Of a stretch of 64,000 nt of DNA, positions 22,820 to 39,368 are shown one piece after another. Both the position numbers and the translations under genes were made by a program. Numbering within the stretch: position 1 is the first letter of the stretch; every line of letters begins with the position of its first letter. Origin of the DNA: Rhodothermales bacterium (GTDB lineage Bacteria > Bacteroidota > Rhodothermia > Rhodothermales > Bin80); assembly GCA_951812585.1 (NCBI GenBank), contig OX638318.1, forward strand, positions 1,794,380-1,858,379, given 5' to 3'. The notes under the pieces are model-generated. The model did not search any database, had not been told where the DNA came from, and saw only the letters and a program-made list of their open reading frames with translations.

Positions 22820-23647
22820 ATGGTAGAGGTTTCGGAGTGGCTTTCAACCCTGCGCCACAGGATTCAGTACACACTCTTTGGCGACGAGTCCCCGTACGCC
22901 AGGCTGGTCGACATCACGGTCATCGTTGCGATTCTGGCAAGCGTCCTGGTGGTGATGTTGGAGAGCATACCCCGTTATAACGCGGCGTTTGGGCGGCAGC
23001 TACACATCGCTGAGTGGGTATTTACGATCATCTTTACGGTCGAGTACCTCTTTCGGCTGCTTTGCGCCAAGAGGCCCAAAGTTTATGCTCGCAGCTTTTA
23101 CGGCATCGTAGACCTGATGGCGGTCGTACCGACCTATATCAGTTTCTTTCTTCCGGGTGCTGAAACGCTGCTGGTGATACGACTCTTGCGCCTGCTCCGC
23201 GTGTTCAGAATACTCAAGCTCGTCGCGTTCCTGGACGCAGGCAACGTGCTTATAGATGTGCTTAAGCAAAGCGCACGCAGCATCGCGATTTTTTTGACCG
23301 CCGTTTTTGTGCTGGTGACCATACTGGGTTCACTGATCTACCTCGTGGAAGGGGCAGAAAACGGGTACGACACCATTCCGCGCAGCATCTACTGGGCCGT
23401 CGTGACATTGACAACAGTCGGATATGGTGACATTTCTCCGCAAACCCCGTTGGGACAGGCCCTGGCGGCGGTCGTGATGGTCATCGGATACTCCATCATC
23501 GCCGTGCCTGCTGGCATTGTATCACTGGGATTTTCACGGGCCATAAGGCCCAGGAAGGGAGGCAAGGTGTGTACGTGGTGCCACGAAAAACGTCACGATC
23601 CTAAAGCCCAGTTTTGCCACAACTGCGGCACCAAGCTAATCACATGA
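22820..23647 (+). CDS. voltage-gated-type potassium channel (ion transporter)
   Basis: S4 RLLRLLRVFRILKL, filter TTVGYGD, C-terminal zinc ribbon. Confidence 0.93.
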   Translation: MVEVSEWLSTLRHRIQYTLFGDESPYARLVDITVIVAILASVLVVMLESIPRYNAAFGRQLHIAEWVFTIIFTVEYLFRLLCAKRPKVYARSFYGIVDLMAVVPTYISFFLPGAETLLVIRLLRLLRVFRILKLVAFLDAGNVLIDVLKQSARSIAIFLTAVFVLVTILGSLIYLVEGAENGYDTIPRSIYWAVVTLTTVGYGDISPQTPLGQALAAVVMVIGYSIIAVPAGIVSLGFSRAIRPRKGGKVCTWCHEKRHDPKAQFCHNCGTKLIT

Positions 23648-26218
23648 AAGGAAGCATTCCCTGGCTGGGGGGCGCAGGTTGTAGTGTGTGCTCATAACCT
23701 GTCCGTACGCCCCTGCCGTAGCCACGAGGAGCACATCGCCTTCAGAAGTTTTGGGCAATCGTCGTCCGTGCCCGAGGATGTCGCCAGTTTCGCAGATGGG
23801 GCCGACCACTTCGGCGGTGATGGCAGGTGGCGCATCCAGGTGTGACAGGTTTGCGATGGCATGGTACGCGCCATAGAGCGCGGGACGAATCAGGGAGTTC
23901 ATGCCGGTTTCCACGCCGACGTAGTGCATGGATCCCTTCTCTTTCACCTGCGTGACGCGCGCCAAAAGGACACCGGATTCCGCGACAAGCAGTCGTCCGG
24001 GCTCCATCCACAGGGCAAAGTGCGGGTGCGCTTGTCTGAAGCTGCCAAGGTCCTCGGCCAGCGCATCCAGGTCCAGCGCCGTGGCACCCGGGCGCTCCGG
24101 CACACCAAAGCCGCCCCCGATGTTGAGAATGCGCACCTCAGGGAAGTCTTCGGCAAGCGACGCCAGGAAGTAGGCCGTTTCTGTCCAGGTGCTGCTCATG
24201 AGGATGCCGCTGCCCACATGCGCATGCAGTCCAATGATGGTCACACTAATATCCGCGGCGAGCCTTTGCAGCCTAGGCAACGCGTCGGGGGCGATTCCGA
24301 ACTTGGACTGCGTGCCGGCGGTCCGCACATGTTTATGGTGTCCGTGACCGCGACCAGGGTCAACCCGTATGATGATCTTTCGGCCAGCGAACACATCAGG
24401 CCACAGCTCCAGTGGGCGCGTGCTGTCCAGCGTTACGTAGCCCGCGAGGCGAAATCCGGTCTCGTACTCCTCCCGCGGCGCAAAATTGGGTGTGAACAGG
24501 ATCCGCTCTGGATCCAAGTCTGGAAACAGCCGATGGGCAAGCGCCAGCTCCCCCGGCGACACGCATTCAAAGCCAAGTCCTGCCTCGTAGAAGACACGCA
24601 GCACGTCGGGGTGCAGGCTCGCTTTCATCGCATAGAAGCAGCGCGCTACCGGTGCGAGCCCAAGGACTTGCCTGGCAGCCGCCCGCAGTGTGGCTTCATC
24701 ATATACATAGCACGGAGAATGCTCTTTCGCAATGCGCAACAGGTCGGTGCGCCGCTGCTTCCACCACAGGGCCCGTTCCGTCGGCAGATCAGCGTCAAAG
24801 AGCTCCCGGTAGGTCTTGCCGAACAGGCCATTGCGGCTCATGTGACCGAAGATCTGGCTGTGCAGCTTGGCGACCAGGCGCGCCGCCTGGGACTCGTGGA
24901 CCACAAAGGTGAGGTTGCGGTCACTGGCGGCCTGCGTCACGAGGAAGACCTGCTGCTCGCTCAGGGCTTCCAGCGCCGGGCCCAGCTCGTGCAGCACGCT
25001 GCGAATCTGGCGCCCCACCAGGCTGACGGCGGCGCAGGACTGAATCGGCTGCGCACTGCAAAACATGTTGAGGTCTGACAGCAGCGACTCCAGCTTAGAA
25101 GGCGAAAGCGCGACCCCGTGTATGGGGTCGATCGACATGGTGACGTTCGTTTCCGATGTGGCGACATGGCCGATGGACAGGCCATGGCGTTCGAACAATC
25201 CGCAGACGCGCGCCAAAAAGCCTACGGAGTGCCACATGCGTGGCGTTTCTATGGCAATCAGGGTTAGGCCCGCCAGCGTAGAGATGGCCTTGACCTGTGC
25301 GCCGAAGGTTTCTACGTCCGGCGCGATGACCGTCCCAGGCAACTGCGGCGCAAGGGTGGATCGAATATGCAGCGGGATGCCGGCGCTTCGCAGCGGGTCG
25401 ATGCAGCGTGCATGCAGCACTTCGGCCCCTGTGCTGGCAAGCTCCTCGGCCTCATCGTATTCCAGGTGCCGAAGTAGGCGGGCGGACGGAATGATGCGCG
25501 GGTCAGCCGTGAACATTCCCGGCACATCCGTCCAGATCTCCACATGTTCCGCTTCAAGCTTCGCGGCCAAATAGGACGCCGAAGTATCGGAACCGCCCCA
25601 CCCGATGAGCACCGTTTCGCCCCGCCGATTGCGCGCGATGAAGCCTTGCGTAAGCGTGATGCAGTCCGAGGCCAATGCGGCCTTCAGGGCCATGTCCGGC
25701 GCGTGTTCGCACTGATTGGACAGGTACTGCTCGTGCAGCGGCGCGCGGCTATCTGTGTGGGCCTGCAGCAAAGTGCGGGCATCACGCCAAGTTGTTTGCA
25801 GTCCTTGCCGCCTCAAAAAGGCTGCGCCGAGCGTGGTCAGCATCAGCTCGCCACCAGACAGTATGCGCGCTCTGACAGCCGGGCCGACTTCCTGTGTGAG
25901 CGAGATGCCGTAGGCCAGCCGCGTGATGCTGTCGAAGTAATGTGCCAATAGCGCCCGGCCGTCGACTTCGAGTGCGCTTGCGAGCGCTAGGTGCCGCTCT
26001 TTGATGGCCTCGAGTAATGCTTCGTGTGCATTGGCCAGAGCAGCACTCAGGAGCGCCTCCAGTTCGCGAGAAACGCGTTCCATGGCCGAGCACACCAGGA
26101 CAGGGCGCTTGCCTGCCTCGAGGCGTTCCTGCGCAATGGAAGCGACCGTATCCCAGTGTGCGCGTGTCGACACGCTTGTGCCGCCAAACTTTGCCACCAC
26201 ATACGGAGATGCATCCAC
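23636..26218 (-). CDS. bifunctional aspartate kinase / diaminopimelate decarboxylase (LysC-LysA fusion)
   Basis: KFGGTSV, GGSDTSA, WTDVPG, ACT domains, then YAMKA, FECVSPGE, HAHVGSG, EPGR, GPICETGD. Confidence 0.96.
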   Translation of the reverse strand: MDASPYVVAKFGGTSVSTRAHWDTVASIAQERLEAGKRPVLVCSAMERVSRELEALLSAALANAHEALLEAIKERHLALASALEVDGRALLAHYFDSITRLAYGISLTQEVGPAVRARILSGGELMLTTLGAAFLRRQGLQTTWRDARTLLQAHTDSRAPLHEQYLSNQCEHAPDMALKAALASDCITLTQGFIARNRRGETVLIGWGGSDTSASYLAAKLEAEHVEIWTDVPGMFTADPRIIPSARLLRHLEYDEAEELASTGAEVLHARCIDPLRSAGIPLHIRSTLAPQLPGTVIAPDVETFGAQVKAISTLAGLTLIAIETPRMWHSVGFLARVCGLFERHGLSIGHVATSETNVTMSIDPIHGVALSPSKLESLLSDLNMFCSAQPIQSCAAVSLVGRQIRSVLHELGPALEALSEQQVFLVTQAASDRNLTFVVHESQAARLVAKLHSQIFGHMSRNGLFGKTYRELFDADLPTERALWWKQRRTDLLRIAKEHSPCYVYDEATLRAAARQVLGLAPVARCFYAMKASLHPDVLRVFYEAGLGFECVSPGELALAHRLFPDLDPERILFTPNFAPREEYETGFRLAGYVTLDSTRPLELWPDVFAGRKIIIRVDPGRGHGHHKHVRTAGTQSKFGIAPDALPRLQRLAADISVTIIGLHAHVGSGILMSSTWTETAYFLASLAEDFPEVRILNIGGGFGVPERPGATALDLDALAEDLGSFRQAHPHFALWMEPGRLLVAESGVLLARVTQVKEKGSMHYVGVETGMNSLIRPALYGAYHAIANLSHLDAPPAITAEVVGPICETGDILGHGRRLPKTSEGDVLLVATAGAYGQVMSTHYNLRPPARECFLSCD

Positions 26219-26442: not shown

Positions 26443-26740
26443 CGTGCTTGCCCGAAAAAAAAGGAGGGTCGGAGGCCAAGTTCAGGCTGATTGGCGGTGA
26501 GCATTCGGCGCATGGCCATGGTCAGGGAGGTGTACAGGCCAGCGGTACCCGGTTTTGAGCGAATCAAGCACCGAATCATGTCGCTGAATCGCCTGATTTG
26601 TGCCAAGCTGATATAGCGCGCCCCGCTCCCCGTTACAAGGAGTATGAGGACCTCGCTCTTCTGGTGACGCTGGGAAGTTCTTACGGATTCTTCTTGCGGG
26701 CTTGGCACCGGCGTGCTTCTTGCTTCTTCAGAATCTGACC
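26443..26740 (-). pseudogene. 3' end remnant of ISNCY-like transposase plus terminal inverted repeat
   Basis: Minus frame 26740-26681 reads GQILKKQEARRCQARKKNP*, resembling the basic C-terminal tail of this transposase family as recalled; about 220 bp of 3' region then the IR. Confidence 0.6.
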
Positions 26741-27210
26741 TTTCGCGCCCGATAAGAATCGGGGGCTCGCCGACGGCGGTGATTCCGAAGGCTAAGCGTC
26801 GGGGTTCGCTGCCCGTTACAAGCTGTGCCTGCTGAACGAAGCGGGGACTCGCACCGAGCCCGGAGAGATCGGCGTGCTCTGGAACCGGGAAGGTCTCTAC
26901 GCGTCGCACCTGAGAAGATGGTACCGCCCGCGTGAACGTGGAGCGTGCTACGGCGCGATCTGGGTCGGCAAGGAGCTGGAGCAGGCCAAGGCCGTCGTAG
27001 AGATTCAAAAAAAAAGTCTGCACGCTGTTTGGCAGCAGCAGCGAGACCGAAGCCGGGCAGCTATGAAGGAGAGGGTGATGCTACTGCATCCGATCGTGGG
27101 CGCGAAAGCGGCCTTTCGGTCTGTGGGCATCTCCTGTGCCAGCTACGACAGAAGCCGGCGTCCGGCGATGTCGGGGCCCAGGCGCCGCCGCTAACGAACC
27201 ACTGAAGCGT
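26737..27210 (+). pseudogene. IS3-family transposase 5' remnant (orfA plus start of orfB), copy 1
   Basis: Frameshifted VIPKAKRR/FAARYKLCLLNEAGTRTEPGEIGVLWNREGLYASHLRRW, ELEQAKAVVEIQKK, A9G slippery tract (27007-27016), orfB-like HPIVGAKAAFRSVGISCASY. Confidence 0.8.
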
Positions 27211-27227
27211 GATCCAGAGGTGACCGC

Positions 27228-29534
27228 ATGAAGTCCACACGACATCACACTGATTTCAAGACGAGCCTGTCTCCAACTCCTTGGCACATCTTCTGCGTCG
27301 TGCGGTTCTTCGTACCGGTCGGGGTGCCGATGGCGCTGGTTCTGATGATGCTGGGGCATCCGCTCTATGCGCAGCCTTATCAGGAGCCTCCGCTTTCTCT
27401 GCAGTTCCTGCAGGAGCTGGAAGAAGACCCTGTAGAGCGCGTTTCCGCGGCCGATCTTTTACGCGACACGTTGGCAGCCCCGGTTGTCACCGGCTATGCG
27501 GTCAATCTGGAGCGGGACTATCGTGCACTGGTAGCGCTGTACGCATCAACGAATGGAGACAGTTGGAATACAAAAACGCATTGGGATACAACGCTTTCGG
27601 TGAGTGACATTAGAGCCACCAGGCTTGATTCCTTTTATGGTGTGACGGCAAGTAGTGCGGCCGGAGTGACGGCAATCGATTTGCACGTAAACAACCTAGG
27701 CGGGCTGCTTCCGCCCGCACTTGGCAATCTCTCGGCATTGCAAGTGCTATCGCTGAACGGTAATTACATAACCGGGCCGATCCCGCCCGCACTCGGCAAT
27801 CTCTCGGCATTGCAAGTGCTGAATCTGAGCTTCAATAGGCTGACCGGGCCGATCCCGCCCGCACTCGGCAATCTCTCGGCATTGCAAGTGCTGAATCTGA
27901 GCTTCAATGAGAAATTGCCGCACGAGAATTATGGACTGACCGGGCCGATTCCGCCTGAACTCGGCAATCTCTCGGCATTGCAAGTGCTGGATCTGGAATT
28001 CAATCGGCTGTGGGGGCCGCTTCCGCCCGAAATCGGCAATCTCTCGGCATTGCAAGTGCTGGATCTGAGCCTCACAGATCTGACGGGGCCGATCCCGCCC
28101 GCACTCGGCAATCTCTCGGCATTGCAAGTGCTGGATCTGAGCCGCACAGATCTGACGGGGCCGATCCCGCCCGCACTCGGCAATCTCTCGGAATTGCAAG
28201 CGCTGAGGCTGGACGGCAATTCGCTGACGGGGCCGATCCCGCCCGCACTTGGCAATCTCTCGGAATTGCAAGAGCTGGATCTGGGCTACAATTATTCGCT
28301 GACCGGGCCGATCCCGCCTGACCTCGGCAATCTCTCGGCATTGCGAGAGCTGGATCTGTCCTACAATTCGCTGACGGGGCCGCTTCCGCCCGCACTCGGC
28401 AATCTCTCGGAATTGCAAGAGCTGAGGCTGTACGATAATGACATAACCGGGCCGCTTCCGCCCGAAATAGGCAATCTCTCGGAATTGCAAGAGCTGTGGC
28501 TGTACGATAATGACATAACCGGGCCGCTTCCGCCCGAAATAGGCAATCTCTCGGAATTGCAAGAGCTGAGGCTGTACGATAATGACATAACCGGGCCGCT
28601 TCCGCCCGCACTCGGCAATCTCTCGGCTTTGCAAGATCTGAATCTGCACAACAATTCGTTGACCGGGCCGCTTCCGACCGAACTCGGCAATCTCTCGGCT
28701 TTGCAAGCGCTGTTTCTGTCCAACAATTCGCTAACGGGGCCGCTTCCGACCGAACTCGGCAACCTCTCGGCTTTGGAATGGCTGAATCTGTCCGACAATT
28801 CGCTGGCAGGTGTGCTTCCGCGGAGTCTCATGCAGCTGGACAGTCTAAACACTTTCTACTTTGGCGGCCAGGAACTGTGCGCACCGGCGGACAGTGACTT
28901 CCAGGCGTGGTTGAGCAGCATCCCGAGTACAGACGGGCCCACCTGCGCACCCTTGCAGCTTACAGGTACAATTGCAAATCAAACCTTTCGCAGAGCACAG
29001 CCCATTGCGCCGCTGGTCTTGCCTGAAGCCTCGGGAGGTGTGTCGCCGATCAATTACACGCTGGCTCCTACACTCCCGACAGGCCTGAGCTTTGATTCGG
29101 CAACGCGCACGATCAGCGGTACGCCGACGGAAGTCACGCAAGGTCCCTTACCCTACACATACACGGCGACCGACACGAACGGATCCGCCGACAGTTTGCA
29201 CTTCACTATTGAGGTGTTTGGACCATTGGCCGCTGAGCACGAGACATTGCCAGAATCGTTTGCCGTACATGGTAATTATCCGAATCCCTTCCGTGCATGG
29301 ACCCGCATCGTGTTCGATCTGCCTTGGCCGGCGCGCGTGACCGTTGAAGTCATGGACCTAACGGGCCGGCGCGTGCTTGCTATAGCGCCGGTGGATCTGT
29401 CCGCTGGGTGGGCGCATAACATTGCAATAAGCGGTCTTACACTTTCTTCGGGACTCTATCTGTACCGCCTGATGGCCGCGCCGCCCGAGAGCCACGCAAC
29501 GTATCGGATGGGCCGCTTCGTGCACATTCGCTAA
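27228..29534 (+). CDS. secreted plant-type LRR protein (15 GNLS repeats) + putative Ig domain + T9SS type-A sorting domain, copy 1
   Basis: ALVALYASTNG N-cap, 24-aa LTGPIPPELGNLSALQVLDLxxN repeats, LPTGLSFDSATRTISGTPT, GNYPNPF...LSSGLYLYRL. Confidence 0.93.
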   Translation: MKSTRHHTDFKTSLSPTPWHIFCVVRFFVPVGVPMALVLMMLGHPLYAQPYQEPPLSLQFLQELEEDPVERVSAADLLRDTLAAPVVTGYAVNLERDYRALVALYASTNGDSWNTKTHWDTTLSVSDIRATRLDSFYGVTASSAAGVTAIDLHVNNLGGLLPPALGNLSALQVLSLNGNYITGPIPPALGNLSALQVLNLSFNRLTGPIPPALGNLSALQVLNLSFNEKLPHENYGLTGPIPPELGNLSALQVLDLEFNRLWGPLPPEIGNLSALQVLDLSLTDLTGPIPPALGNLSALQVLDLSRTDLTGPIPPALGNLSELQALRLDGNSLTGPIPPALGNLSELQELDLGYNYSLTGPIPPDLGNLSALRELDLSYNSLTGPLPPALGNLSELQELRLYDNDITGPLPPEIGNLSELQELWLYDNDITGPLPPEIGNLSELQELRLYDNDITGPLPPALGNLSALQDLNLHNNSLTGPLPTELGNLSALQALFLSNNSLTGPLPTELGNLSALEWLNLSDNSLAGVLPRSLMQLDSLNTFYFGGQELCAPADSDFQAWLSSIPSTDGPTCAPLQLTGTIANQTFRRAQPIAPLVLPEASGGVSPINYTLAPTLPTGLSFDSATRTISGTPTEVTQGPLPYTYTATDTNGSADSLHFTIEVFGPLAAEHETLPESFAVHGNYPNPFRAWTRIVFDLPWPARVTVEVMDLTGRRVLAIAPVDLSAGWAHNIAISGLTLSSGLYLYRLMAAPPESHATYRMGRFVHIR
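27709..28810 (+). repeat. 72-bp intragenic tandem repeat array (LRR modules), copy 1
   Basis: Near-invariant ggcaatctctcgg scaffold recurring every 72 nt, in frame with the LRR gene. Confidence 0.92.
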
Positions 29535-30069
29535 GGGAGACATCCGCGGTCCGCTGTAATGTCTAAATCGCAGGCGAGCACCTTCTGCAAGGTGTCCAGC
29601 ACGAAGAGCCGCCATAGACGCAGGCCCGGGCGACCACGCCGCAGATTGACCTTCGCGCCCAAGTGCTCCCGCAGGATCGCGAACACACGCGCGTGCTGCG
29701 GTGCGTGAAGCGGTTCTGCAGTCCACGGAGAACGTTCGGAATATCGTCTCTGGACCGAGGATCCAACGTGATCTCTCCAATGGGCGTATGCCCAAGCGCA
29801 AACGGTGGCTCGAAGATCGCGCGCATAGCAGTAAAACGGGCGAATGTCGGGGCAGAAGCGTAAGAATTCCGCCAAGAACAAGCCCAGGATCAGAAAACGG
29901 TGCAGCATTCGCTGAAACAACGTAGGCCGCCGTTGGGGGAAACGGCCCCGAAAGCAGCCGCTCCACACCCCCAAATGCCCGATCTTTTGCCGCTTGCACC
30001 CATATATCCGCCCTATGCGCCCACAACTGCCGATTTTCAGGGCCAATCAGGCATTTTGGGGCAAGCATG
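29531..30069 (-). pseudogene. 5' remnant of ISNCY-like transposase with terminal IR, copy 1 (frameshifted)
   Basis: MRAIFEPPFALGHTPIGEITLDPRSRDDIPNVLRGLQ / RVFAILREHLG...GRPGLRLWRLFVL...LACDLD, truncated at the LRR stop; IR at 30054-30067. Confidence 0.8.
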
Positions 30070-30312
30070 AATTCGTCATTCATTAATTATGTATGCCGGG
30101 TTGTGACTGGCACTGCCAGCAGCGATCTGATTGTCTGGGGCCGCTATGCTGCTTGCTGCGCGATTTACACACTGTGTGCTTTGCACGCCGGAGCTTTATG
30201 CTTGTAATGACTGAGACCGCTCAGCCGCTTGTGTTGAAGCGGTCCGGGACTTAGCAGGCAGCTTGGCCAGGCATTCCAGCCTGGTCTCTCCGTTCCCTTG
30301 ATCCTGCGCACT

Positions 30313-30800
30313 ATGGACAAATCGGACCTTTCGCGCCCGATAAGAATCGGGGGGGGGGGCTTGCCGACGGCGGTGATTCCGAAGGCTAAGCGTCGGGGTT
30401 CGCTGCCCGTTACAAGCTGTGCCTGCTGAACGAAGCGGGGGCTCGCACCGAGCCCGGAGAGATCGGCGTGCTCTGGAACCGGGAAGGTCTCTACGCGTCA
30501 CACCTGACAAGATGGCACCGCCCGCGTGAACGTGGAGCGTGCTACGGCGCGATCCGGGTCGGCAAGGAGCTGGAGCAGGCCAAGGCCGTCGTAGAGATTC
30601 AAAAAAAGTCTGCACGCTGTTTGGCAGCAGCAGCGAGACCGAGGCCGGGCAGCTATGAGGGAGAGGGTGATGCTACTGCATCCGATCGTGGGCGCGAAAG
30701 CGGCCTTTCGGTCTGTAGGGGTTCCCGTGCCGGCTACGGCAGAAGCCGGTGTCCGGCGATGCCGGGACCTTGGCGCCGCCGCTAACTAACCACTGAAGCG
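30313..30800 (+). pseudogene. IS3-family transposase 5' remnant, copy 2
   Basis: Near-identical to 26737-27210; retains candidate start ATG 30313 (MDKSDLSRPIRIGGGGLPTAVIPKAKRR); G11 tract at 30349-30359; A7G at 30601-30608. Confidence 0.8.
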
Positions 30801-30818
30801 TGATCCAGAGGTGACCGC

Positions 30819-33476
30819 ATGAAGTCCACAGGTCACACTGATTTCAAGACGAGCCTGTCTCCAACTCCTTGGCACATCTTCTGCGTCGTGCGGTTCTTCG
30901 TACCGGTCGGGGTGCCGATGGCGCTGGTTCTGATGATGCTGGGGCATTCGCTCTATGCGCAGCCTTATCAGGAGCCTCCGATTTCTCTGCAGTTCCTGCA
31001 GGAGCTGGAAGAAGGCCCTGTAGAGCGCGTTTCCGCGGCCGATCTTTTACGCGACACGTTGGCAGCCCCGGTTGTCACCGGCTATGCGGTCAATCTGGAG
31101 CGGGACTATCGTGCACTGGTAGCGCTGTACGCATCAACGAATGGAGACAGTTGGAATACAAATACGCATTGGGATACAACGCTTTCGGTGAGTGACATTA
31201 GAGCCACCAGGCTTGATTCCTTTTATGGTGTGACGGCAAGTAGTGCGGCCGGAGTGACGGCAATCGATTTGCACTTAAACAACCTAGGCGGGCTGCTTCC
31301 GCCCGCACTTGGCAATCTCTCGGCATTGCAAGTGCTGGATCTGCGCAGCAATTCGCTGACGGGGCCGATCCCTTCCGAGCTCGGCAATCTCTCGGCATTG
31401 CAAGTGCTGAATCTGAGCTTCAATGAGAAATTGCCGCACGAGAATTATGGACTGACCGGGCCGATTCCGCCTGAACTCGGCAATCTCTCGGCATTGCAAG
31501 TGCTGGATCTGGAATTCAATCGGCTGTGGAGGCCGATCCCGCCCGAAATCGGCAATCTCTCGGAATTGCACGAGCTGTCTCTGGGCGACAATTCGCTGAC
31601 GGGGCCGATCCCGCCCGAACTCGGCAACCTCACGGAATTGCAAGCGCTGGATCTGTCCCGCAATTCGCTGGCGGGGCCGATCCCGCCCGAACTCGGCAAT
31701 CTCTCGGCATTGCAAGTGCTGGATCTGAGCCGCAATTATTGGCTGATCGGGTCGATCCCTTCCGAACTCGGCAATCTTTCGCAATTGCAAGAGCTGTATC
31801 TGTACAACAATTCGCTGACGGGGCCGCTTCCGCCCGAAATTGGCAATCTCTCGGAATTGCAAGAGCTGTATCTGTACAACAATTCGCTGACGGGGCCGCT
31901 TCCGCCCGAAATCGGCAATCTCTCGGAATTGCACGAGCTGTCTCTGGGCGAAAATTCGCTAACGGGGCCGCTTCCGCCCGAAATAGGCAATCTCTCGGAA
32001 TTGGAACGGCTGTTGCTGTCCAACAATTCGCTAACGGGGTCGATCCCTTCCGAACTCGGCAATCTTTCGGAATTGCAAGAGTTGTATCTGTCCTACAATT
32101 CGCTGACGGGGCCGCTTCCGCCTGAACTCGGCAATCTCTCGGAATTGCAAGAGCTGTATCTGTACAACAATTCGCTGACGGGGCCGCTTCCGCCCGAAAT
32201 AGGCAATCTCTCGAAATTGCAACAGCTGTATCTGTTCGGCAATTCGCTGACGGGGTCGCTTCCGCCCGAAATCGGCAATCTCTCGGAATTGCAATGGCTG
32301 TATCTGTCCTACAATTCGCTGACGGGGCCGCTTCCGCCCGAAATCGGCAATCTCTCGGCTTTGCAAGTGCTGGATCTGGGCGACAATTCGCTGACGGGGT
32401 CGCTTCCGCCCGAAATCGGCAATCTCTCGGAATTGCAAGATCTGCGGCTGTACAACAATGGGCTGACCGGGCCGATCCCGCCCGAAATCGGCAATCTCTC
32501 GGAATTGCACGAGCTGTCTCTGCCCTACAATTCGCTGACGGGGTCGCTTCCGCCTGAAATAGGCAATCTCTCGAAATTGCACGAGCTGTCTCTGGGCGAA
32601 AATTCGCTAACGGGGCCGCTTCCGCCTGAAATAGGCAATCTCTCGAAATTGTGGACGCTGTCGCTGCACAGCAATTCGCTGACGGGGCCGCTTCCGCCTG
32701 AAATAGGCAACCTCTCGGCTTTGCGAACGCTGTGGCTGCAAGACAATTCGCTGACGGGTGCGCTGCCGCGGAGTCTCATGCAGCTGGACAATCTAAGCTG
32801 GTTCCGATTTGCCAGCCAGGAACTGTGCGCACCGGCGGACAATTACTTCCAGGCGTGGCTGAGCAGCATCTCGAATACAGACGGGGCCAACTGTGCACCT
32901 TTGGCTTTGGATCTTAAAGGTACAATTGCAAATCAAACCTTTACCAGAGCACAACCCATTGCCCCGCTGGTCTTGCCTGAAGCCTCGGGAGGCGTGTCGC
33001 CGATCAATTACACGCTGGCTCCCACACTGCCGACAGGCCTGAGCTTTGACTCGGCAACGCGCACGATCAGCGGTACGCCGACGGGAGTCACGCAAGGTCC
33101 CTTGCCCTACACATACACAGCGACCGACGCGATCGGATCCGCCGGCAGTTTGCACTTCACTATTACTATTGAGGTGTTTCCACTACCGGAATCGTTTGCC
33201 GTGCAGGGCAATTACCCGAATCCCTTCCGTGCATGGACCCACATCGTGTTCGATCTGCCTTGGCCGGCGCGCGTGACCGTTGAAGTCATGGACCTAACGG
33301 GCCGGCGCATGCTTGCTATAGCGCCGGTGGATCTGTCCGCTGGATGGGCGCATAACATTGCAATAAGCGGCCTTACCCTTTCTTCGGGACTCTACATGTA
33401 TCGCCTGATGGCCGCGCCGTCCGGACGCAAGAGCCACGCAACGTATCGGATGGGTCGCTTCGTGCACATTCGCTAA
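30819..33476 (+). CDS. secreted plant-type LRR protein (20 GNLS/T repeats) + putative Ig domain + T9SS type-A sorting domain, copy 2
   Basis: Same architecture and near-identical termini as 27228..29534, with a different LRR array. Confidence 0.93.
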   Translation: MKSTGHTDFKTSLSPTPWHIFCVVRFFVPVGVPMALVLMMLGHSLYAQPYQEPPISLQFLQELEEGPVERVSAADLLRDTLAAPVVTGYAVNLERDYRALVALYASTNGDSWNTNTHWDTTLSVSDIRATRLDSFYGVTASSAAGVTAIDLHLNNLGGLLPPALGNLSALQVLDLRSNSLTGPIPSELGNLSALQVLNLSFNEKLPHENYGLTGPIPPELGNLSALQVLDLEFNRLWRPIPPEIGNLSELHELSLGDNSLTGPIPPELGNLTELQALDLSRNSLAGPIPPELGNLSALQVLDLSRNYWLIGSIPSELGNLSQLQELYLYNNSLTGPLPPEIGNLSELQELYLYNNSLTGPLPPEIGNLSELHELSLGENSLTGPLPPEIGNLSELERLLLSNNSLTGSIPSELGNLSELQELYLSYNSLTGPLPPELGNLSELQELYLYNNSLTGPLPPEIGNLSKLQQLYLFGNSLTGSLPPEIGNLSELQWLYLSYNSLTGPLPPEIGNLSALQVLDLGDNSLTGSLPPEIGNLSELQDLRLYNNGLTGPIPPEIGNLSELHELSLPYNSLTGSLPPEIGNLSKLHELSLGENSLTGPLPPEIGNLSKLWTLSLHSNSLTGPLPPEIGNLSALRTLWLQDNSLTGALPRSLMQLDNLSWFRFASQELCAPADNYFQAWLSSISNTDGANCAPLALDLKGTIANQTFTRAQPIAPLVLPEASGGVSPINYTLAPTLPTGLSFDSATRTISGTPTGVTQGPLPYTYTATDAIGSAGSLHFTITIEVFPLPESFAVQGNYPNPFRAWTHIVFDLPWPARVTVEVMDLTGRRMLAIAPVDLSAGWAHNIAISGLTLSSGLYMYRLMAAPSGRKSHATYRMGRFVHIR
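31296..32760 (+). repeat. 72-bp intragenic tandem repeat array (LRR modules), copy 2
   Basis: Same scaffold as copy 1, 20 modules counted from the translation. Confidence 0.92.
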
Positions 33477-34009
33477 GGGAGACATCCGCGGCCCGCTGTA
33501 ATGTCTAAATCGCAGGCGAGCGCCTTCTGCAAGGTGGCCAGCACGAAGATCCGCCATAAACACAAGCCCGGGTGACTACGCCGCAGAGTGACCTTCGCAC
33601 CCAAGTGCTCCCGCAAGATCGCGAACACGCGCGTGCTGCGGTGCGTGAAGCGGTCCTGCAGTCCACGGAGAACGGCCGGAATATCGTCTCTGGACCGAGG
33701 GTCCAACGTGATCTCTCCAATGGGCGTATGCCCAAGCGCAAGCGGTGGCTCGAAGATCGCGCGCATAGCAGTACAACGGGCGAAGGTCGGGGCAGAAGCG
33801 TACGCATCCCACCAATAACAGGCCCAGGATCAGAAAACGGTGCAGCATTCGCTGAAACAACGTAGGCCGCCGTTGGCGGGAACGGCCCCGAAAGCAGCCG
33901 CTCTACACCCCCAAATGCCCGATCTTTCGCCGCTTGCACCCGTATACCCGCCCTATGCGCCTACAACTGTTGGTCTGCAGGGCCAATCAGGCATTTTCGG
34001 GCAAGCATT
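33473..34009 (-). pseudogene. 5' remnant of ISNCY-like transposase with terminal IR, copy 2
   Basis: Continuous 97-aa ORF 33473..33766 (MRAIFEPPLALGHTPIGEITLDPRSRDDIP...LACDLD); IR at 33994-34007. Confidence 0.8.
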
Positions 34010-35541: not shown

Positions 35542-36246
35542 CTATGACGCACCGACGGGTTGTTGCATCGTGGCATGGCGCTGGGCGGCAAGGTGCTGCG
35601 CATGCGCCAGCGCCTCCGGCCCAAGCCTGAGCTGCAGCTGCTGCATAAGGTGCAAGGCCTCTTGATCCCCCTGCTGCGCAGCCTGTGCATACCATGCGTA
35701 AGCCTCGGTCAGACTTGGCGGCATGCCCAAGCCGTGTTCCAGCATCTGTCCCAGGTGGCGCTGCGCTGAGACGCTACCGCCCTGCGCAGCGCGCTGGTAC
35801 CAGCCGGCGGCTTCGCCGTAGTTGACGGGCGTGCCCTCGCCCCGCATATGACAGGACGCCAGGCTGAACTGGGCGCTGACGTTGCCTTGCGCAGCAGCAT
35901 AGGCCAGCCACCGGACCGCTTCCGCCAAGTCCTGTGCCACGCCGCGGCCAGTATGAAAGAGCACCCCCAGGTTGCACTGTGCCCCAGGATGTCCCTGGTT
36001 GGCTGCCGCCCAAAACCATCGCGCGGCCTCTACGAAGTTTTGCTCTACGCCCGCTCCACTATAGAACGCACACCCGAGCATGAACTGCGCTTCCGGATCG
36101 CCGCGCTCGGCCAGCGGCCCGTACTGACTGACGGTCTTGGCGGTCACATGCGACTTGATGCCGGCGATGGCGCGATCCCGCGCCCGGCCCATCAGTGCGC
36201 GGGATTGCTTTTTGACGGCCGAGGCGATAGCCCAGCGTATCCACAT
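35542..36246 (-). CDS. Sel1-repeat protein
   Basis: AERGDPEAQFMLG, AANQGHPGAQCNLG, AAAQGNVSAQFSLA, AAQGGSVSAQRHLG repeats. Confidence 0.92.
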   Translation of the reverse strand: MWIRWAIASAVKKQSRALMGRARDRAIAGIKSHVTAKTVSQYGPLAERGDPEAQFMLGCAFYSGAGVEQNFVEAARWFWAAANQGHPGAQCNLGVLFHTGRGVAQDLAEAVRWLAYAAAQGNVSAQFSLASCHMRGEGTPVNYGEAAGWYQRAAQGGSVSAQRHLGQMLEHGLGMPPSLTEAYAWYAQAAQQGDQEALHLMQQLQLRLGPEALAHAQHLAAQRHATMQQPVGAS

Positions 36247-36767: not shown

Positions 36768-38150
36768 CTAGTACTCTTCCTCATCGAGTGCGCGGTTGTC
36801 AATCTCCTCTTTGCGGATCATGACCCGCTGTTTCAATTTCGCCAGATTGAACGGGTCAAGTTCCTGCTCCAATCTGGATACGCCCTGCCTGCCTTCATCA
36901 TTACCGCGATCCGCAGCCAGTGAATACCAGATGTAAGACTCCACAGCATTTTCTTCCACGCCGTGCCCGATGCCGTAGAGATAGCCCAGGCGTGCTTGTG
37001 CTTCTTCGTGTCCATTCTCGGCCGCCTGAAGGTACCACCGCGCAGCTTTTCGTGCGTCCGGTACTCCTTCAAATCCTATGTAGAAAAGATTTCCTGCCGT
37101 GAATTGGGCTTCCATATGCCCCTGCGCTGCGGCCTGCAAGAGCCACCTGCCAGCCTCCCTATAGTTCTTGTTCAGGATATTGCCGGTGTAATACATGTTG
37201 CCGAGCTCGTATTGTGCACGGGGGTCTCCTTGCTCTGCAGCCTTTCTGAAGAGAGTGGCGGCAGCAATGCCATCGGCCTCAACCCCTCGGCCCCGCGCGA
37301 ACAGGCGCCCAAGCAGGACCTGAGCATCAACATCGCCTTGGTCGGCCGATTGCATAAGCCAGTACACTGCTGTCTCCGGGTCTGGGTTTTCCAACAGCAG
37401 ACCGGTGTTGAATCGGATCCCAACGTGACGCTGCGCCCGGGCATGGCCCGCCTTCGCGGCCCGCATAGTCCAGCGAAGCGACGCTTCCAGATTCTTCGGG
37501 ACGCCCTGGCCGTTCATATGGCAAGCGGCGAGCAAGTCCATGGCAGGCGCATGCCCCTGCTCCGCTGCGCGGCGCAGCCACAGCGCAGCCTCCACATAAT
37601 CCTCTTCAACGCCGCGGCCATGCCAGTAGCTGAAGCCAAGCTTGTATTGTGATTCTGCATCCCCTTGCTCGGCAGCCATCCGCATCCAGCGAAAGGCCTC
37701 ATCATAGTCCTGGGGCTTGCCGTCACCCTTGTAATAGCAGATCGCAAGGTCGTGCTGCGCCTTTGCTAATCCACTCCCTGCGGCTAACTCGAGGTACCTT
37801 GTTGACTTTCTGATGCTTTCAGCAGTGCCCTGTCCGCTCACATAGCACCGCGCCAGAAAATACTGCGCTGCAGCATGCTGCTGCTTGGCTGCGCGCTTCG
37901 CCCAGCGGATCGCCCTGCGCGGTTTGTAATACCCCGTGCCGGATCGCGAGTGAATAAGCGCCAGCAAGAACTGCGCCTCCCCATGGCCGCGCTGGGCCGC
38001 CTTGAGAAACCATCGCGTCGCTTCCTGCATGTTTTCAGGGACATCGATGCCTCTGAAATAGATCTGTCCTAAGTCCCACTGTGCCTCCCGGTCGCCCTTG
38101 CGCGCACGCCGCAACAGCGCTTGGTGCTCTTTGGAAGAGTCTCTTGACAT
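36768..38150 (-). CDS. Sel1-repeat protein (about 11 repeats)
   Basis: Repeated A(A)xQGxxxAQxxLG motifs; start at ATG 38150 (MSRDSSKEHQ), with the ORF-track extension to 38426 judged spurious. Confidence 0.92.
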   Translation of the reverse strand: MSRDSSKEHQALLRRARKGDREAQWDLGQIYFRGIDVPENMQEATRWFLKAAQRGHGEAQFLLALIHSRSGTGYYKPRRAIRWAKRAAKQQHAAAQYFLARCYVSGQGTAESIRKSTRYLELAAGSGLAKAQHDLAICYYKGDGKPQDYDEAFRWMRMAAEQGDAESQYKLGFSYWHGRGVEEDYVEAALWLRRAAEQGHAPAMDLLAACHMNGQGVPKNLEASLRWTMRAAKAGHARAQRHVGIRFNTGLLLENPDPETAVYWLMQSADQGDVDAQVLLGRLFARGRGVEADGIAAATLFRKAAEQGDPRAQYELGNMYYTGNILNKNYREAGRWLLQAAAQGHMEAQFTAGNLFYIGFEGVPDARKAARWYLQAAENGHEEAQARLGYLYGIGHGVEENAVESYIWYSLAADRGNDEGRQGVSRLEQELDPFNLAKLKQRVMIRKEEIDNRALDEEEY

Positions 38151-38414
38151 ATTGGCCCGGTGACCAAACCGAAAGGGTGTGAACGTACGCGCAGCATAGC
38201 GTTTTTGTTCAGCACATCGGGATGTGTTCAGCCGGAGCCGTGCGGTGTCTGGGGCCGCAAGGGCCGTCCGCCCGCTTGCGCGGTGCTCACCTGGCCACGG
38301 AGCCAGCCCGCTTTGCACCAATGCACCGTCGAGGCACCTATTGTCTTGCGCACATTGTAGATTGACTGCAGCGCAGCATCCCTTAGGCCCTCTTAGCGGC
38401 CTAGCACATCCGCC

Positions 38415-39368
38415 ATGCACTATCAAATGCGACGTCGCACTTTAGTAGAAGAACTCAAGAGGCATCCATGGCTGCGCAGTCAGGATCTGGCGCAGACGTT
38501 GCACGTCAGCACGCGGACGATTCGCCGCGATGTTGCGGCGCTGCGTATTCAGGGTATGCCCATAGAGGGACGCCGCGGCAAAGGGCTGCGGCTCAATGAA
38601 GGATACTTCCTCGACCCGGTAACCCTTGCCAGCGACGAGGCTGCGCTTGCGGTGGTTGGGAGCACCGTTGTCGCTGCGCGGCTGAGTGCGGATGTGCAGG
38701 CGACAGCCCAGTCGCTGCGTGCGCGCGTTCTCAAGAAGGGCTCCGAAAAGCTCCAGGCGCATATTGAGGGGCTCGAAGCAGACTTACTGCTTGCACCGGA
38801 CGAGATGGGAGACCGCAAGCACGAAGCGGGGAAGCTGGAACGTGTGCGCCAAGCGCTCGTCAGCCGGATGGTGCTCCAATTCGGATCAGACGACAACCCT
38901 GAGCTGTTTCACCCGTACGGGCTAAGCTGGGGGCAGGGCCGGTGGCTTGTCATCGGCTACAGCGTTGCGCGATGTGCAGTCTGCAGCTACCGCGTGGACG
39001 CCCTCGAGCGTATCAAGATCGGCACCGACACCTTCACGCGGCCGCCCGCCTACACGCTCAGCGACGCTCCGCCGAAAGATGAAGCGGCACCGGCACGGGT
39101 GCAGTTTGATGCGCCCAGCTCCCGCTGGATCGTTGCGACGACGCCCGACTTCATCGAGACAATCCACACCAGGGATGATGGCATCGTAGTGACGCTGGCC
39201 GCAGAGCCCGAGCCGCAGGTGCTACGGTGGATCCTGGGCTGGGGCGCGCACGCCCGCGTCGTAGCGCCGCTCGCGCTGAAGCGGCGCGTGGCCAAGGAGG
39301 TGGCCGCGATGGCGGAGGTGTATGCGACCAAAGAGCCCATTCAGATACGGCAGTCCACCTTGTTTTGA
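38415..39368 (+). CDS. YafY-family HTH-WYL-WCX transcriptional regulator
   Basis: LAQTLHVSTRTIRRDVAAL HTH, FHPYGL...WLVIGY...SYRVDAL WYL, WILGWGAHARVVAPLAL WCX. Confidence 0.92.
   Translation: MHYQMRRRTLVEELKRHPWLRSQDLAQTLHVSTRTIRRDVAALRIQGMPIEGRRGKGLRLNEGYFLDPVTLASDEAALAVVGSTVVAARLSADVQATAQSLRARVLKKGSEKLQAHIEGLEADLLLAPDEMGDRKHEAGKLERVRQALVSRMVLQFGSDDNPELFHPYGLSWGQGRWLVIGYSVARCAVCSYRVDALERIKIGTDTFTRPPAYTLSDAPPKDEAAPARVQFDAPSSRWIVATTPDFIETIHTRDDGIVVTLAAEPEPQVLRWILGWGAHARVVAPLALKRRVAKEVAAMAEVYATKEPIQIRQSTLF

Follow-up and report, generated by a model that had tools for sequence, protein, structure and literature searches.

We analysed two neighbouring genes, here called A and B, that encode leucine-rich repeat (LRR) proteins in a 64,000-nucleotide stretch of the genome of a Rhodothermales bacterium. 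The whole stretch, called the window below, corresponds to positions C1:1794380-1858379; the genome is a single contig of 3,198,349 bp with 60% G+C, and coordinates without the prefix C1 are those of the window. With a probability of about 0.7, we consider that A and B are two of the six genes of an inherited repertoire of LRR binders carried out of the cell as type IX secretion system (T9SS) cargo, and that this repertoire has been shaped by duplication of repeats, selection on the binding face and gene conversion between paralogues. A and B would be tandemly duplicated members of this cargo family in a sponge-associated Rhodothermales. In each of them, a probable Sec signal peptide and an N-cap precede a plant-type LRR solenoid closed by a C-cap with two cysteines, after which come a He_PIG stalk (Ig-like) and a C-terminal sorting domain (CTD) of type A. 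The ligand surface would be made of the concave strand residues 8, 10, 12 and 13 of each repeat module, flanked by residues 5, 7 and 15. We propose that recent tandem duplication of 72-bp units, via unequal crossing-over or slippage, enlarged the arrays, and that the scaffold codons agree at synonymous sites because of this recent growth. Selection for differing binding faces would afterwards have replaced the exposed residues, and the paralogues would additionally swap sequence through gene conversion. The outcome would be a small inherited set of binders, two of them plain LRR proteins (A and B) and four with the array placed behind an S8 serine peptidase, and this set would turn over between strains and species, not inside a cell lineage.

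Modules were counted with GNL[ST] as the anchor, which gives 15 in A and 20 in B, and period-72 arrays are reported by TRF at 27711-28805 and 31452-32769. The modules of both genes are 24 residues long, except for one of 32 residues (A3 and B2) and one of 25 residues (A8 and B6) per gene. The main features of the two genes are as follows.

27228..29534, + strand: gene A, open reading frame (ORF) of 768 aa
27723..28829, + strand: LRR array A, 15 modules (13 of 72 nt, A3 of 96 nt and A8 of 75 nt)
27909..27932, + strand: island loop insertion EKLPHENY (8 codons) in module A3, with its counterpart in B2 at 31425-31448
28035..28178, + strand: recent tandem duplicate A5/A6, 1 nt apart
28398..28613, + strand: recent tandem triplet A10-A12 (RLYDND/WLYDND/RLYDND), 1-4 nt apart
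28968..29216, + strand: He_PIG (Ig-like) domain of gene A (PF05345, E 6.9e-14, residues 581-663)
29277..29531, + strand: T9SS type A C-terminal sorting domain of gene A (TIGR04183, residues 684-749)
30819..33476, + strand: gene B, ORF of 885 aa, a paralogue with the architecture of A and 20 GNLS modules
31311..32777, + strand: LRR array B, 20 modules (island module B2 of 96 nt, B6 of 75 nt)
32922..33170, + strand: He_PIG domain of gene B (PF05345, E 5.5e-14, residues 702-784)
33213..33473, + strand: T9SS type A sorting domain of gene B (TIGR04183)

A preliminary description of the locus, read from the letters, had reported 15 versus 20 modules of 72 bp, scaffold codons that are nearly invariant even at synonymous sites, and variation at the xLxLxxN positions. 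The ORFs, the anchored counts and the TRF period agree with the first of these statements, and the codon table of the 35 modules of A and B agrees with the other two. The module consensus is GNLSxLxxLxLxxNxLTGP(I/L)PPx(L/I), and the consensus of the homologue alignment is in accord with it; an extra cap-proximal repeat (VTAIDLHVNNLGGLLPPAL) lies ahead of the first GNLS module in both genes. Among the 35 modules, the scaffold codons GGC and TTG are found in 35/35, CTG in 35/35 and 33/35, AAT in 32/35 and 33/35, CTC in 33/35, TCG in 34/35, and GGG and CCG each in 32/35. Variation is not spread evenly over the module: it falls on positions 5, 7, 8, 10, 12, 13 and 15, which carry 4-11 residues each, with an amino-acid entropy of 1.3-3.0 bits. 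By the Nei-Gojobori method, the proportion of synonymous differences (pS) at the eleven invariant-residue codons is 0.09 in A, 0.11 in B and 0.10 between A and B, and the proportion of non-synonymous differences (pN) at the seven variable codons is 0.46-0.49, which is 4-5 times the core pS. Mean identity between modules is 66-71% at the amino acid level and 76-80% at the nucleotide level, and the scaffold alone reaches 85-88% in nucleotides.

Signs of recent duplication are seen in both arrays. The island module, placed third in A and second in B by the preliminary description, is identical in A3 and B2 across all 96 nt, and the A3-A4 block differs from B2-B3 at 3 of 168 nt. Local duplication and triplication of modules, also described there, are evident in A5/A6 and A10-A12 (listed above); B has its own recent duplicates in B7, B8 and B12 (1-3 nt apart) and in B9 and B18 (2 nt apart).

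The variable positions were next placed on a predicted fold. The AlphaFold2 model has a pLDDT of 96-98 over the solenoid, with two strands per module, a short one at positions 8-10 and another at positions 15-18; the island insertion forms a loop following the concave strand, where the pLDDT dips to 78-87. Positions 8, 10, 12 and 13 correspond to x3, x5, x7 and x8 of LxxLxLxxN. In LRR structures, residues at these x positions are exposed on the concave face. According to the model, positions 8, 10, 12 and 13 are thus the exposed concave-face residues of the A and B solenoids, in line with the placement of the variable residues in the preliminary description. A and B have LRRs of the plant-specific class with 24 residues. 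Their closest solved relatives by phmmer are GSO1 (2.5e-148), FLS2 (5.6e-129), MIK2 (1.7e-128) and BRI1 (~1e-117), and the top 50 Foldseek hits for the model are plant ectodomains throughout.

Gene A encodes, in order, a putative signal peptide, the N-cap, 15 GNLS modules with the cap-proximal repeat, a Cys-containing C-cap, He_PIG and the T9SS CTD. The Pfam matches of A and B are LRR_1, LRR_8, LRR_14 and He_PIG; Pfam LRRNT_2 (PF08263) gave no match in A or B at E 0.01, and a cap-like motif (ALVALYASTNGDSW...W) is present at the N-cap, without cysteines. The T9SS link drawn in the preliminary description is borne out by the sorting domain TIGR04183 in both proteins: in a six-frame scan of the genome A scores 27.5 bits and B 27.4 bits and both are among 40 ORFs above the cut-off, and PF18962 is found in many homologues. 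Read by eye, the N-terminus of A and B has a basic N-region and a hydrophobic stretch FFVPVGVPMALVLMMLG, then LYA and, across the boundary, Q; the N-terminus of the S8 paralogues is a classical MRILIVLLLPVVLAVPLAGA, again with Q across the boundary. Judged from this domain set, A and B are probably exported, and surface display is likely.

The 13-nt scaffold word GGCAATCTCTCGG was searched in the whole genome (<=2 mismatches), and four further clusters were found, at 157279, 319773, 397670 and 2369070. Collection of the LRR paralogues of the genome thus gave a six-member family of complete genes with 104 modules in total, in which the paralogues carry 14-21 modules; a 24-residue (72 nt) spacing applies to 100/104 modules, the other four being two modules of 32 residues and two of 25. 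The four other paralogues, all outside the window, are open frames of 1337-1444 aa.

C1:155161-159336, + strand: S8-LRR paralogue, 15 modules
C1:319009-323343, - strand: S8-LRR paralogue, 21 modules
C1:396633-400646, - strand: S8-LRR paralogue, 14 modules
C1:2367015-2371142, + strand: S8-LRR paralogue, 19 modules

These proteins start with a signal peptide, followed by an S8 subtilisin-type peptidase, the LRR array, one or two He_PIG domains and the CTD common to A and B. PF00082 is on record for two of them, and the S8 domain was read by eye in all four, where the motifs AIVDGG, HGTAVAG and GTSFSSP (also by eye, four of four) suggest an intact catalytic triad. The S8-LRR-He_PIG-CTD architecture is abundant in sponge metagenomes; if such a protein is named, it is just called 'S8 family serine peptidase'. 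Two LRR protein relatives at 48-49% identity come from sponge metagenome-assembled genomes (MAGs) assigned to other phyla, L022 (Gemmatimonadetes) and L052 (Anaerolineae), which could be due to lateral transfer or to binning error.

Selection was assessed on a FastTree tree of the 104 modules by a parsimony count of changes (SLAC-like). In this per-site check, non-synonymous changes per site amount to 25.8 at position 8, 22.1 at position 10, 26.5 at position 12 and 20.5 at position 13, and synonymous changes per site over all codons to 8.4. The non-synonymous rate at the four positions is 2.4-3.2 times the synonymous rate (Poisson p 2e-8 to 5e-14). The ratio is 2.1-2.2 for the seven variable codons taken jointly and 0.37 for the remaining 17. 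Use of a tree from the same data and undercounting at saturated sites both bias the count in the conservative direction; recombination could inflate it, in the opposite direction. The four-residue faces are enriched in Ser, Tyr, Asp, Gly, Asn, Trp and Arg. We read these substitution counts as a signature of diversifying selection on the face residues of the family, with positions 8, 10, 12 and 13 as likely specificity determinants, four codons per module. An alternative is that recent amplification was followed by relaxed constraint, and that the exposed positions drift without selection for diversity. In every LRR protein it is the exposed strand residues that are under the least constraint; the youngest duplicates have no clear face bias, and the face pN of relatives is similar (0.43-0.74) in young and old arrays, all of which would suit such drift. 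However, drift cannot lift the non-synonymous rate above the synonymous rate, which is what is seen at positions 8, 10, 12 and 13, and the face pN of A and B is several times the core pS given above. We therefore regard relaxed constraint as an unlikely explanation.

The next question is what the uniform scaffold codons mean. In 73 arrays of related genomes, the within-array pS of the core codons is a continuum from 0.10 to 0.88, and the face pN is always within 0.43-0.74. Old arrays of relatives have a pS of 0.6-0.88 at scaffold codons, and the arrays of this family 0.09-0.30. Since the arrays of relatives reach such values at the same codons, the low scaffold pS is not due to codon bias. The codon for Leu6 differs by lineage: it is TTG here and in L001 and L028, CTG in L009, L003 and L010, and CTT in L039, L057 and L060. 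Asn14 is likewise AAT or AAC by lineage, and a scaffold codon is uniform inside a lineage. As codon choice is lineage-specific and uniform within a lineage, synonymous uniformity marks recent amplification or homogenisation, not constraint at the DNA level. We thus take the low synonymous diversity, on the evidence of these comparisons, to be a lineage-specific mark of recent repeat amplification and not a universal nucleotide constraint.

The domains that flank the arrays have a different history. Flank pS is low: the S8 part gives 0.03-0.06, the comparison of A with B over the N-terminal part 0.00, and the C-terminal part 0.06-0.15. In the S8 flank of the four paralogues, three quartet patterns are backed by 14, 9 and 6 sites, many of them in short runs, at ~4% divergence; conflict of this kind goes beyond parallel mutation at such divergence and argues for gene conversion between paralogues, as does the contrast in A versus B between a pS of 0.00 at the 5' side and 0.15 at the 3' side. 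The flanking domains are thus mosaics, which points to gene conversion between paralogues. The caps had been called near-identical in the preliminary description, which holds for the N-side flank (98.6% identical between A and B) and is generous for the C-side flank (~90%, pS 0.15). The N-terminal 169 codons of A and B (27228-27722 and 30819-31310) differ by non-synonymous changes only (pN 0.019, pS 0.000), which are too few for significance. Continual conversion of the S8, N- and C-terminal parts could also mean that only the flanks look young and that the arrays themselves are old and stable. The mosaic quartet patterns of the S8 flank and the 5' versus 3' contrast in pS between A and B speak for this. 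We consider it improbable all the same, because the scaffold pS of this family is far under that of the truly old arrays of relatives and the near-identical adjacent modules point to recent duplication; it is partly compatible with the explanation we favour.

Exchange inside the arrays is plausible. The collinearity of arrays is slight (a collinear register lowers the scaffold distance from ~0.13-0.16 to 0.10-0.15), nearest-neighbour modules are spread over genes and positions, and module distances within a gene are about the same as those between genes. The preliminary description proposed ongoing module shuffling or gene conversion. The recent duplicates, the non-collinear arrays and the mosaic flanks support such a process, which is ongoing only on the evolutionary or strain timescale. 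Shuffling of modules from a shared pool does not fit: 101/104 module peptides are distinct, the 104 modules have 87 distinct four-residue faces, and module nearest neighbours are typically 4-12 nt apart.

Several observations weigh against the favoured explanation. In the youngest duplicate pairs, scaffold synonymous sites differ as often as face sites, although the numbers are small. The evidence for selection comes from a parsimony count of our own making, its tree of 72-nt units is poorly resolved, and recombination may inflate such counts. The PHI test on the 102 distinct modules is non-significant (p 0.04-0.19), and sequence exchange within arrays is not directly shown by it. In one of the two scans for TIGR04183, the NCBIfam hmmscan, the score of B is 22.6 bits, just below the cut-off of 23 (A has 23.5 bits). 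The call of a signal peptide in A and B was made by eye only, and their export, display at the surface, expression and ligands are inferences throughout.

We then examined whether the arrays differ between sponge samples. The population data consist of Logan unitigs, mostly 40-140 nt, which is below the length needed for module counts per array or within-sample diversity. Most modules of A and B are present at 100% likeness in four sponge samples from three studies, dated 2016-2025, and local module adjacency is kept in the unitigs, for example at 28217-28353, 27879-28042 and 31588-31707. Array A hardly differs among five sponge samples: at 96% likeness, three variant sites are found across runs X2, X3, X6 and X7, two of which map to codons of the variable set, one at position 13 of module A3 and the other at position 7 of A11. 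There is more variation in array B.

32562..32705, + strand: modules B18-B19, strain-level array variation; the junction differs in X3 and X6, and the B18/B19 face sequence is missing in X2

In X3 and X6, a contig of single-copy depth links a module with the face LEWLLLSN to B19, where the reference has B18; on this sequence evidence, we take the junction to be a strain-level replacement or rearrangement of modules. The LEWLLLSN face resembles module 10 of the paralogue at 319 kb of the genome. Pieces of B10, B13 and B18 are absent from X7. The spacer between the two genes also varies: 30104-30343 occurs in X1 and, ~4% diverged, in X6, whereas X2 and X7 have no match to it at 90% likeness, a sign that A and B may be joined differently in those strains. 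Strain-level structural variation is thus concentrated in the distal half of B, which also has the youngest duplicates, and the arrays are otherwise stable across years and individuals. Array variation in the population, a check named in the preliminary description, is therefore real in distal B and nearly lacking in A. No conspecific variants were found in the protein database, where the nearest foreign protein is 64% identical, and exact-pattern scans of JGI metagenomes yielded no conspecific contigs, only one contig of a relative at 89% identity. This contig, L092 (LXNJ01001413.1, 1-920), is from a related species; it starts inside an LRR array and continues into the C-cap, He_PIG and CTD at that identity, and its remainder has no counterpart in the studied genome.

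The same unitigs bear on the quality of the assembly. Long near-identical repeats are difficult to assemble, and mis-assembled or collapsed repeats could in principle produce 15 versus 20 modules. This is hardly credible here: the genome is a single 3.2-Mb contig, short-read unitigs of other samples reproduce module-specific sequence and adjacency without mismatch, and both frames are open and end in intact domains.

The preliminary description also called the diversification VLR-like (after the variable lymphocyte receptors of jawless vertebrates). A programmed or high-frequency process could take the form of VLR-like copy-choice, mutagenic retrohoming by a diversity-generating retroelement (DGR) or phase-variable exchange of cassettes. 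The caps around a variable number of modules do resemble VLR genes, the variable codons are mostly of NNC or NNT form, and array B has one altered junction and some missing modules between samples. The rest of the evidence largely refutes such a process, and we regard it as very improbable. A and B are both uninterrupted from signal peptide to CTD, with no incomplete gene, and no donor cassettes were found in a genome-wide scan for the scaffold word, which forms clusters only in the six complete genes (other matches are single and due to chance). No DGR reverse transcriptase was found either: a genome-wide RVT_1 search gave one match only, a truncated 248-aa frame (locus L091, C1:803724-804149, - strand) that lies ~1 Mb away and looks group II intron-like by eye only, and no template or LRR-like repeat was found near it. 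The variable codons change at all four bases (position 8, for example, has GAG/GTG/GCG/TGG/ACG/CGG) and are not adenine-limited, and array A has only its three variant sites in four further samples. A DGR was thus rejected as a candidate, given that the only reverse transcriptase is a distant truncated fragment and the variation extends beyond adenines. VLR-like assembly and a cassette library were rejected as well, on account of the complete genes, the lack of cassettes and the near-identity of array A between samples. We concluded that the genes form an inherited germline repertoire that turns over on evolutionary time, and that the VLR-like label describes a resemblance of pattern only. Taken as sequence evolution, the case for a repertoire of exported binders with a diversified concave face is a good one.

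The two genes sit in a segmental duplication, arranged in tandem and ~3.3-3.7 kb in size. Between the two units, identity is 94-99% for the upstream region and the N-terminal part and ~90-95% for the C-terminal part and downstream region. Features outside the genes are the following.

26733..27227, + strand: duplicated upstream region of unit A, 94-98% identical to the region upstream of B (~30320-30818)
29535..30068, no strand assigned: dispersed ~0.54-kb repeat directly downstream of A, with a second copy at 33477-34008, downstream of B
30104..30343, no strand assigned: spacer between units A and B, unique in the genome, which differs between samples

The 0.54-kb repeat has at least 7 genomic copies with 91-96% identity, several of them away from LRR genes. 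ORFs in the duplicated flanks of A and B have no Pfam or NCBIfam matches, so that an insertion sequence origin of the flanks (as an IS3-like OrfA remnant) found no support. Upstream of the pair, at 23636-26218 (- strand), is an 860-aa fusion of AA_kinase and ACT with a PLP decarboxylase of diaminopimelate/ornithine type, LysC-LysA-like by appearance. About 2 kb downstream are two Sel1-repeat (TPR-like) proteins of 234 and 552 aa (35542-36246 and 36768-38426, both - strand; E 1e-36 and 8e-84), a further eukaryote-like class typical of sponge symbionts.

The organism lives in sponges, as the source genomes of similar proteins are almost all Rhodothermales MAGs of sponge microbiome projects and the sequencing runs containing DNA of the locus are labelled with one host organism or as sponge metagenome. 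This is in keeping with the host interaction that the preliminary description had raised, and such a role is plausible; the ligands would probably be proteins of the sponge itself or of other inhabitants of its mesohyl. A more speculative possibility, which we think doubtful but worth stating, is evolvable targeting of secreted proteolysis: each array would steer a surface-tethered protease to a differing host, phage or neighbour protein, with A and B as protease-free binders or competitors. If this were true, duplication and selection on the face would let the symbiont retune its targets as the recognition proteins of the sponge change, and the family would be an outward-pointed bacterial counterpart of plant R gene and fungal NLR repertoires. 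The protease-armed paralogues beyond the window are the most interesting lead. Sponge symbionts are known to be rich in eukaryote-like repeat proteins. The locus does not reveal a new mechanism of diversification. It provides a quantifiable case of exported plant-type LRR solenoids whose arrays appear to be rebuilt faster than the flanking domains, four of them protease-coupled, and it points to four codons per module as the probable seat of specificity and supplies concrete proteins for binding and secretion tests.

Among known systems, the plant-specific class of LRR ectodomains (GSO1 6s6q, FLS2 4mn8, MIK2 8yaa, BRI1 3rgx) is the closest in structure. Like A and B, it has the 24-residue repeat LxxLxLxxNxLtGxIPxxLGnL, in which each unit contributes two short strands, and in both the solenoid is superhelical and the C-cap contains a pair of cysteines. 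In plant LRR receptors, ligands bind the same exposed strand positions. The island loop of A and B is faintly like the island domains of BRI1 and PSKR, with 8 residues instead of 36-70. In contrast to the plant proteins, A and B are bacterial, have no transmembrane helix or kinase and no LRRNT_2 match, and end in He_PIG and a T9SS CTD. The best NCBIfam matches are the Xanthomonas type III effectors XopAE, XopAC and XopL, which have LRRs like those of the plant class; they match in the LRR region only, with scores of 73-230 bits against family cut-offs of 450-600, and they differ in their secretion route and in effector domains that are absent from A and B. A literature search for plant-specific LRRs in bacteria returned nothing specific.

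In terms of export, the nearest counterparts are in oral Bacteroidota. BspA is a host-binding adhesin, and BspA-type repeats belong to another LRR class of ~23 residues, the Treponema pallidum type. T9SS cargo with LRRs includes BspA of Tannerella forsythia as well as PG0350 (internalin-like) and PG1374 of Porphyromonas gingivalis, and BspA is located in the outer membrane (PMC5445135). Like A and B, these proteins combine an LRR array, an Ig-like domain and a classical C-terminal sorting domain. They differ in that no comparable family of face-diversified paralogues and no S8 fusion has been described for them.

The likeness to VLR genes consists of LRRNT/LRRCT-style caps around a variable number of modules, an invariant scaffold and a hypervariable concave face. 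The VLR genes of lamprey and hagfish are incomplete in the germline and are completed somatically, by copy-choice that draws on flanking cassettes, hundreds in number, and involves a cytidine deaminase. In the family described here, all six genes are complete and inherited, cassettes are lacking, and sequences are near-identical from one sample to the next. A closer evolutionary parallel is found in fungi. The WD40, ANK and TPR repeats of the nwd/hnwd genes of Podospora are alike within a gene, vary in number, undergo exchange inside and between family members and are under positive selection at a few positions that map to the binding surface, and no LRR motifs have been found in fungal NLRs (PMC4986451). 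The regime is much the same: the repeats within a gene are alike, the paralogues carry 14-21 modules, and the parsimony count places selection at a few positions of the binding surface, here 8, 10, 12 and 13, which fall within the concave strand or directly behind it. The modules studied here, at 66-71%, stay under the amino-acid identity within a gene of >85% that is used for the fungal repeats. Fungal NLRs are intracellular STAND receptors with repeat-induced point mutation (RIP) as mutagenesis, whereas the proteins studied here are exported and have no RIP counterpart.

Sponge symbionts are enriched in eukaryote-like proteins (ELPs) with ANK, TPR/Sel1 and LRR repeats, to which a part in host interaction is ascribed (PMC4850255). 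The functional evidence concerns mainly ankyrin proteins. A literature search found no paper that joins Rhodothermales, sponge and LRR, and no face diversification described for such LRR families. In summary, LRR-containing ELPs of sponge symbionts, LRR proteins as T9SS cargo and the repeat regime of fungal NLRs are each known already.

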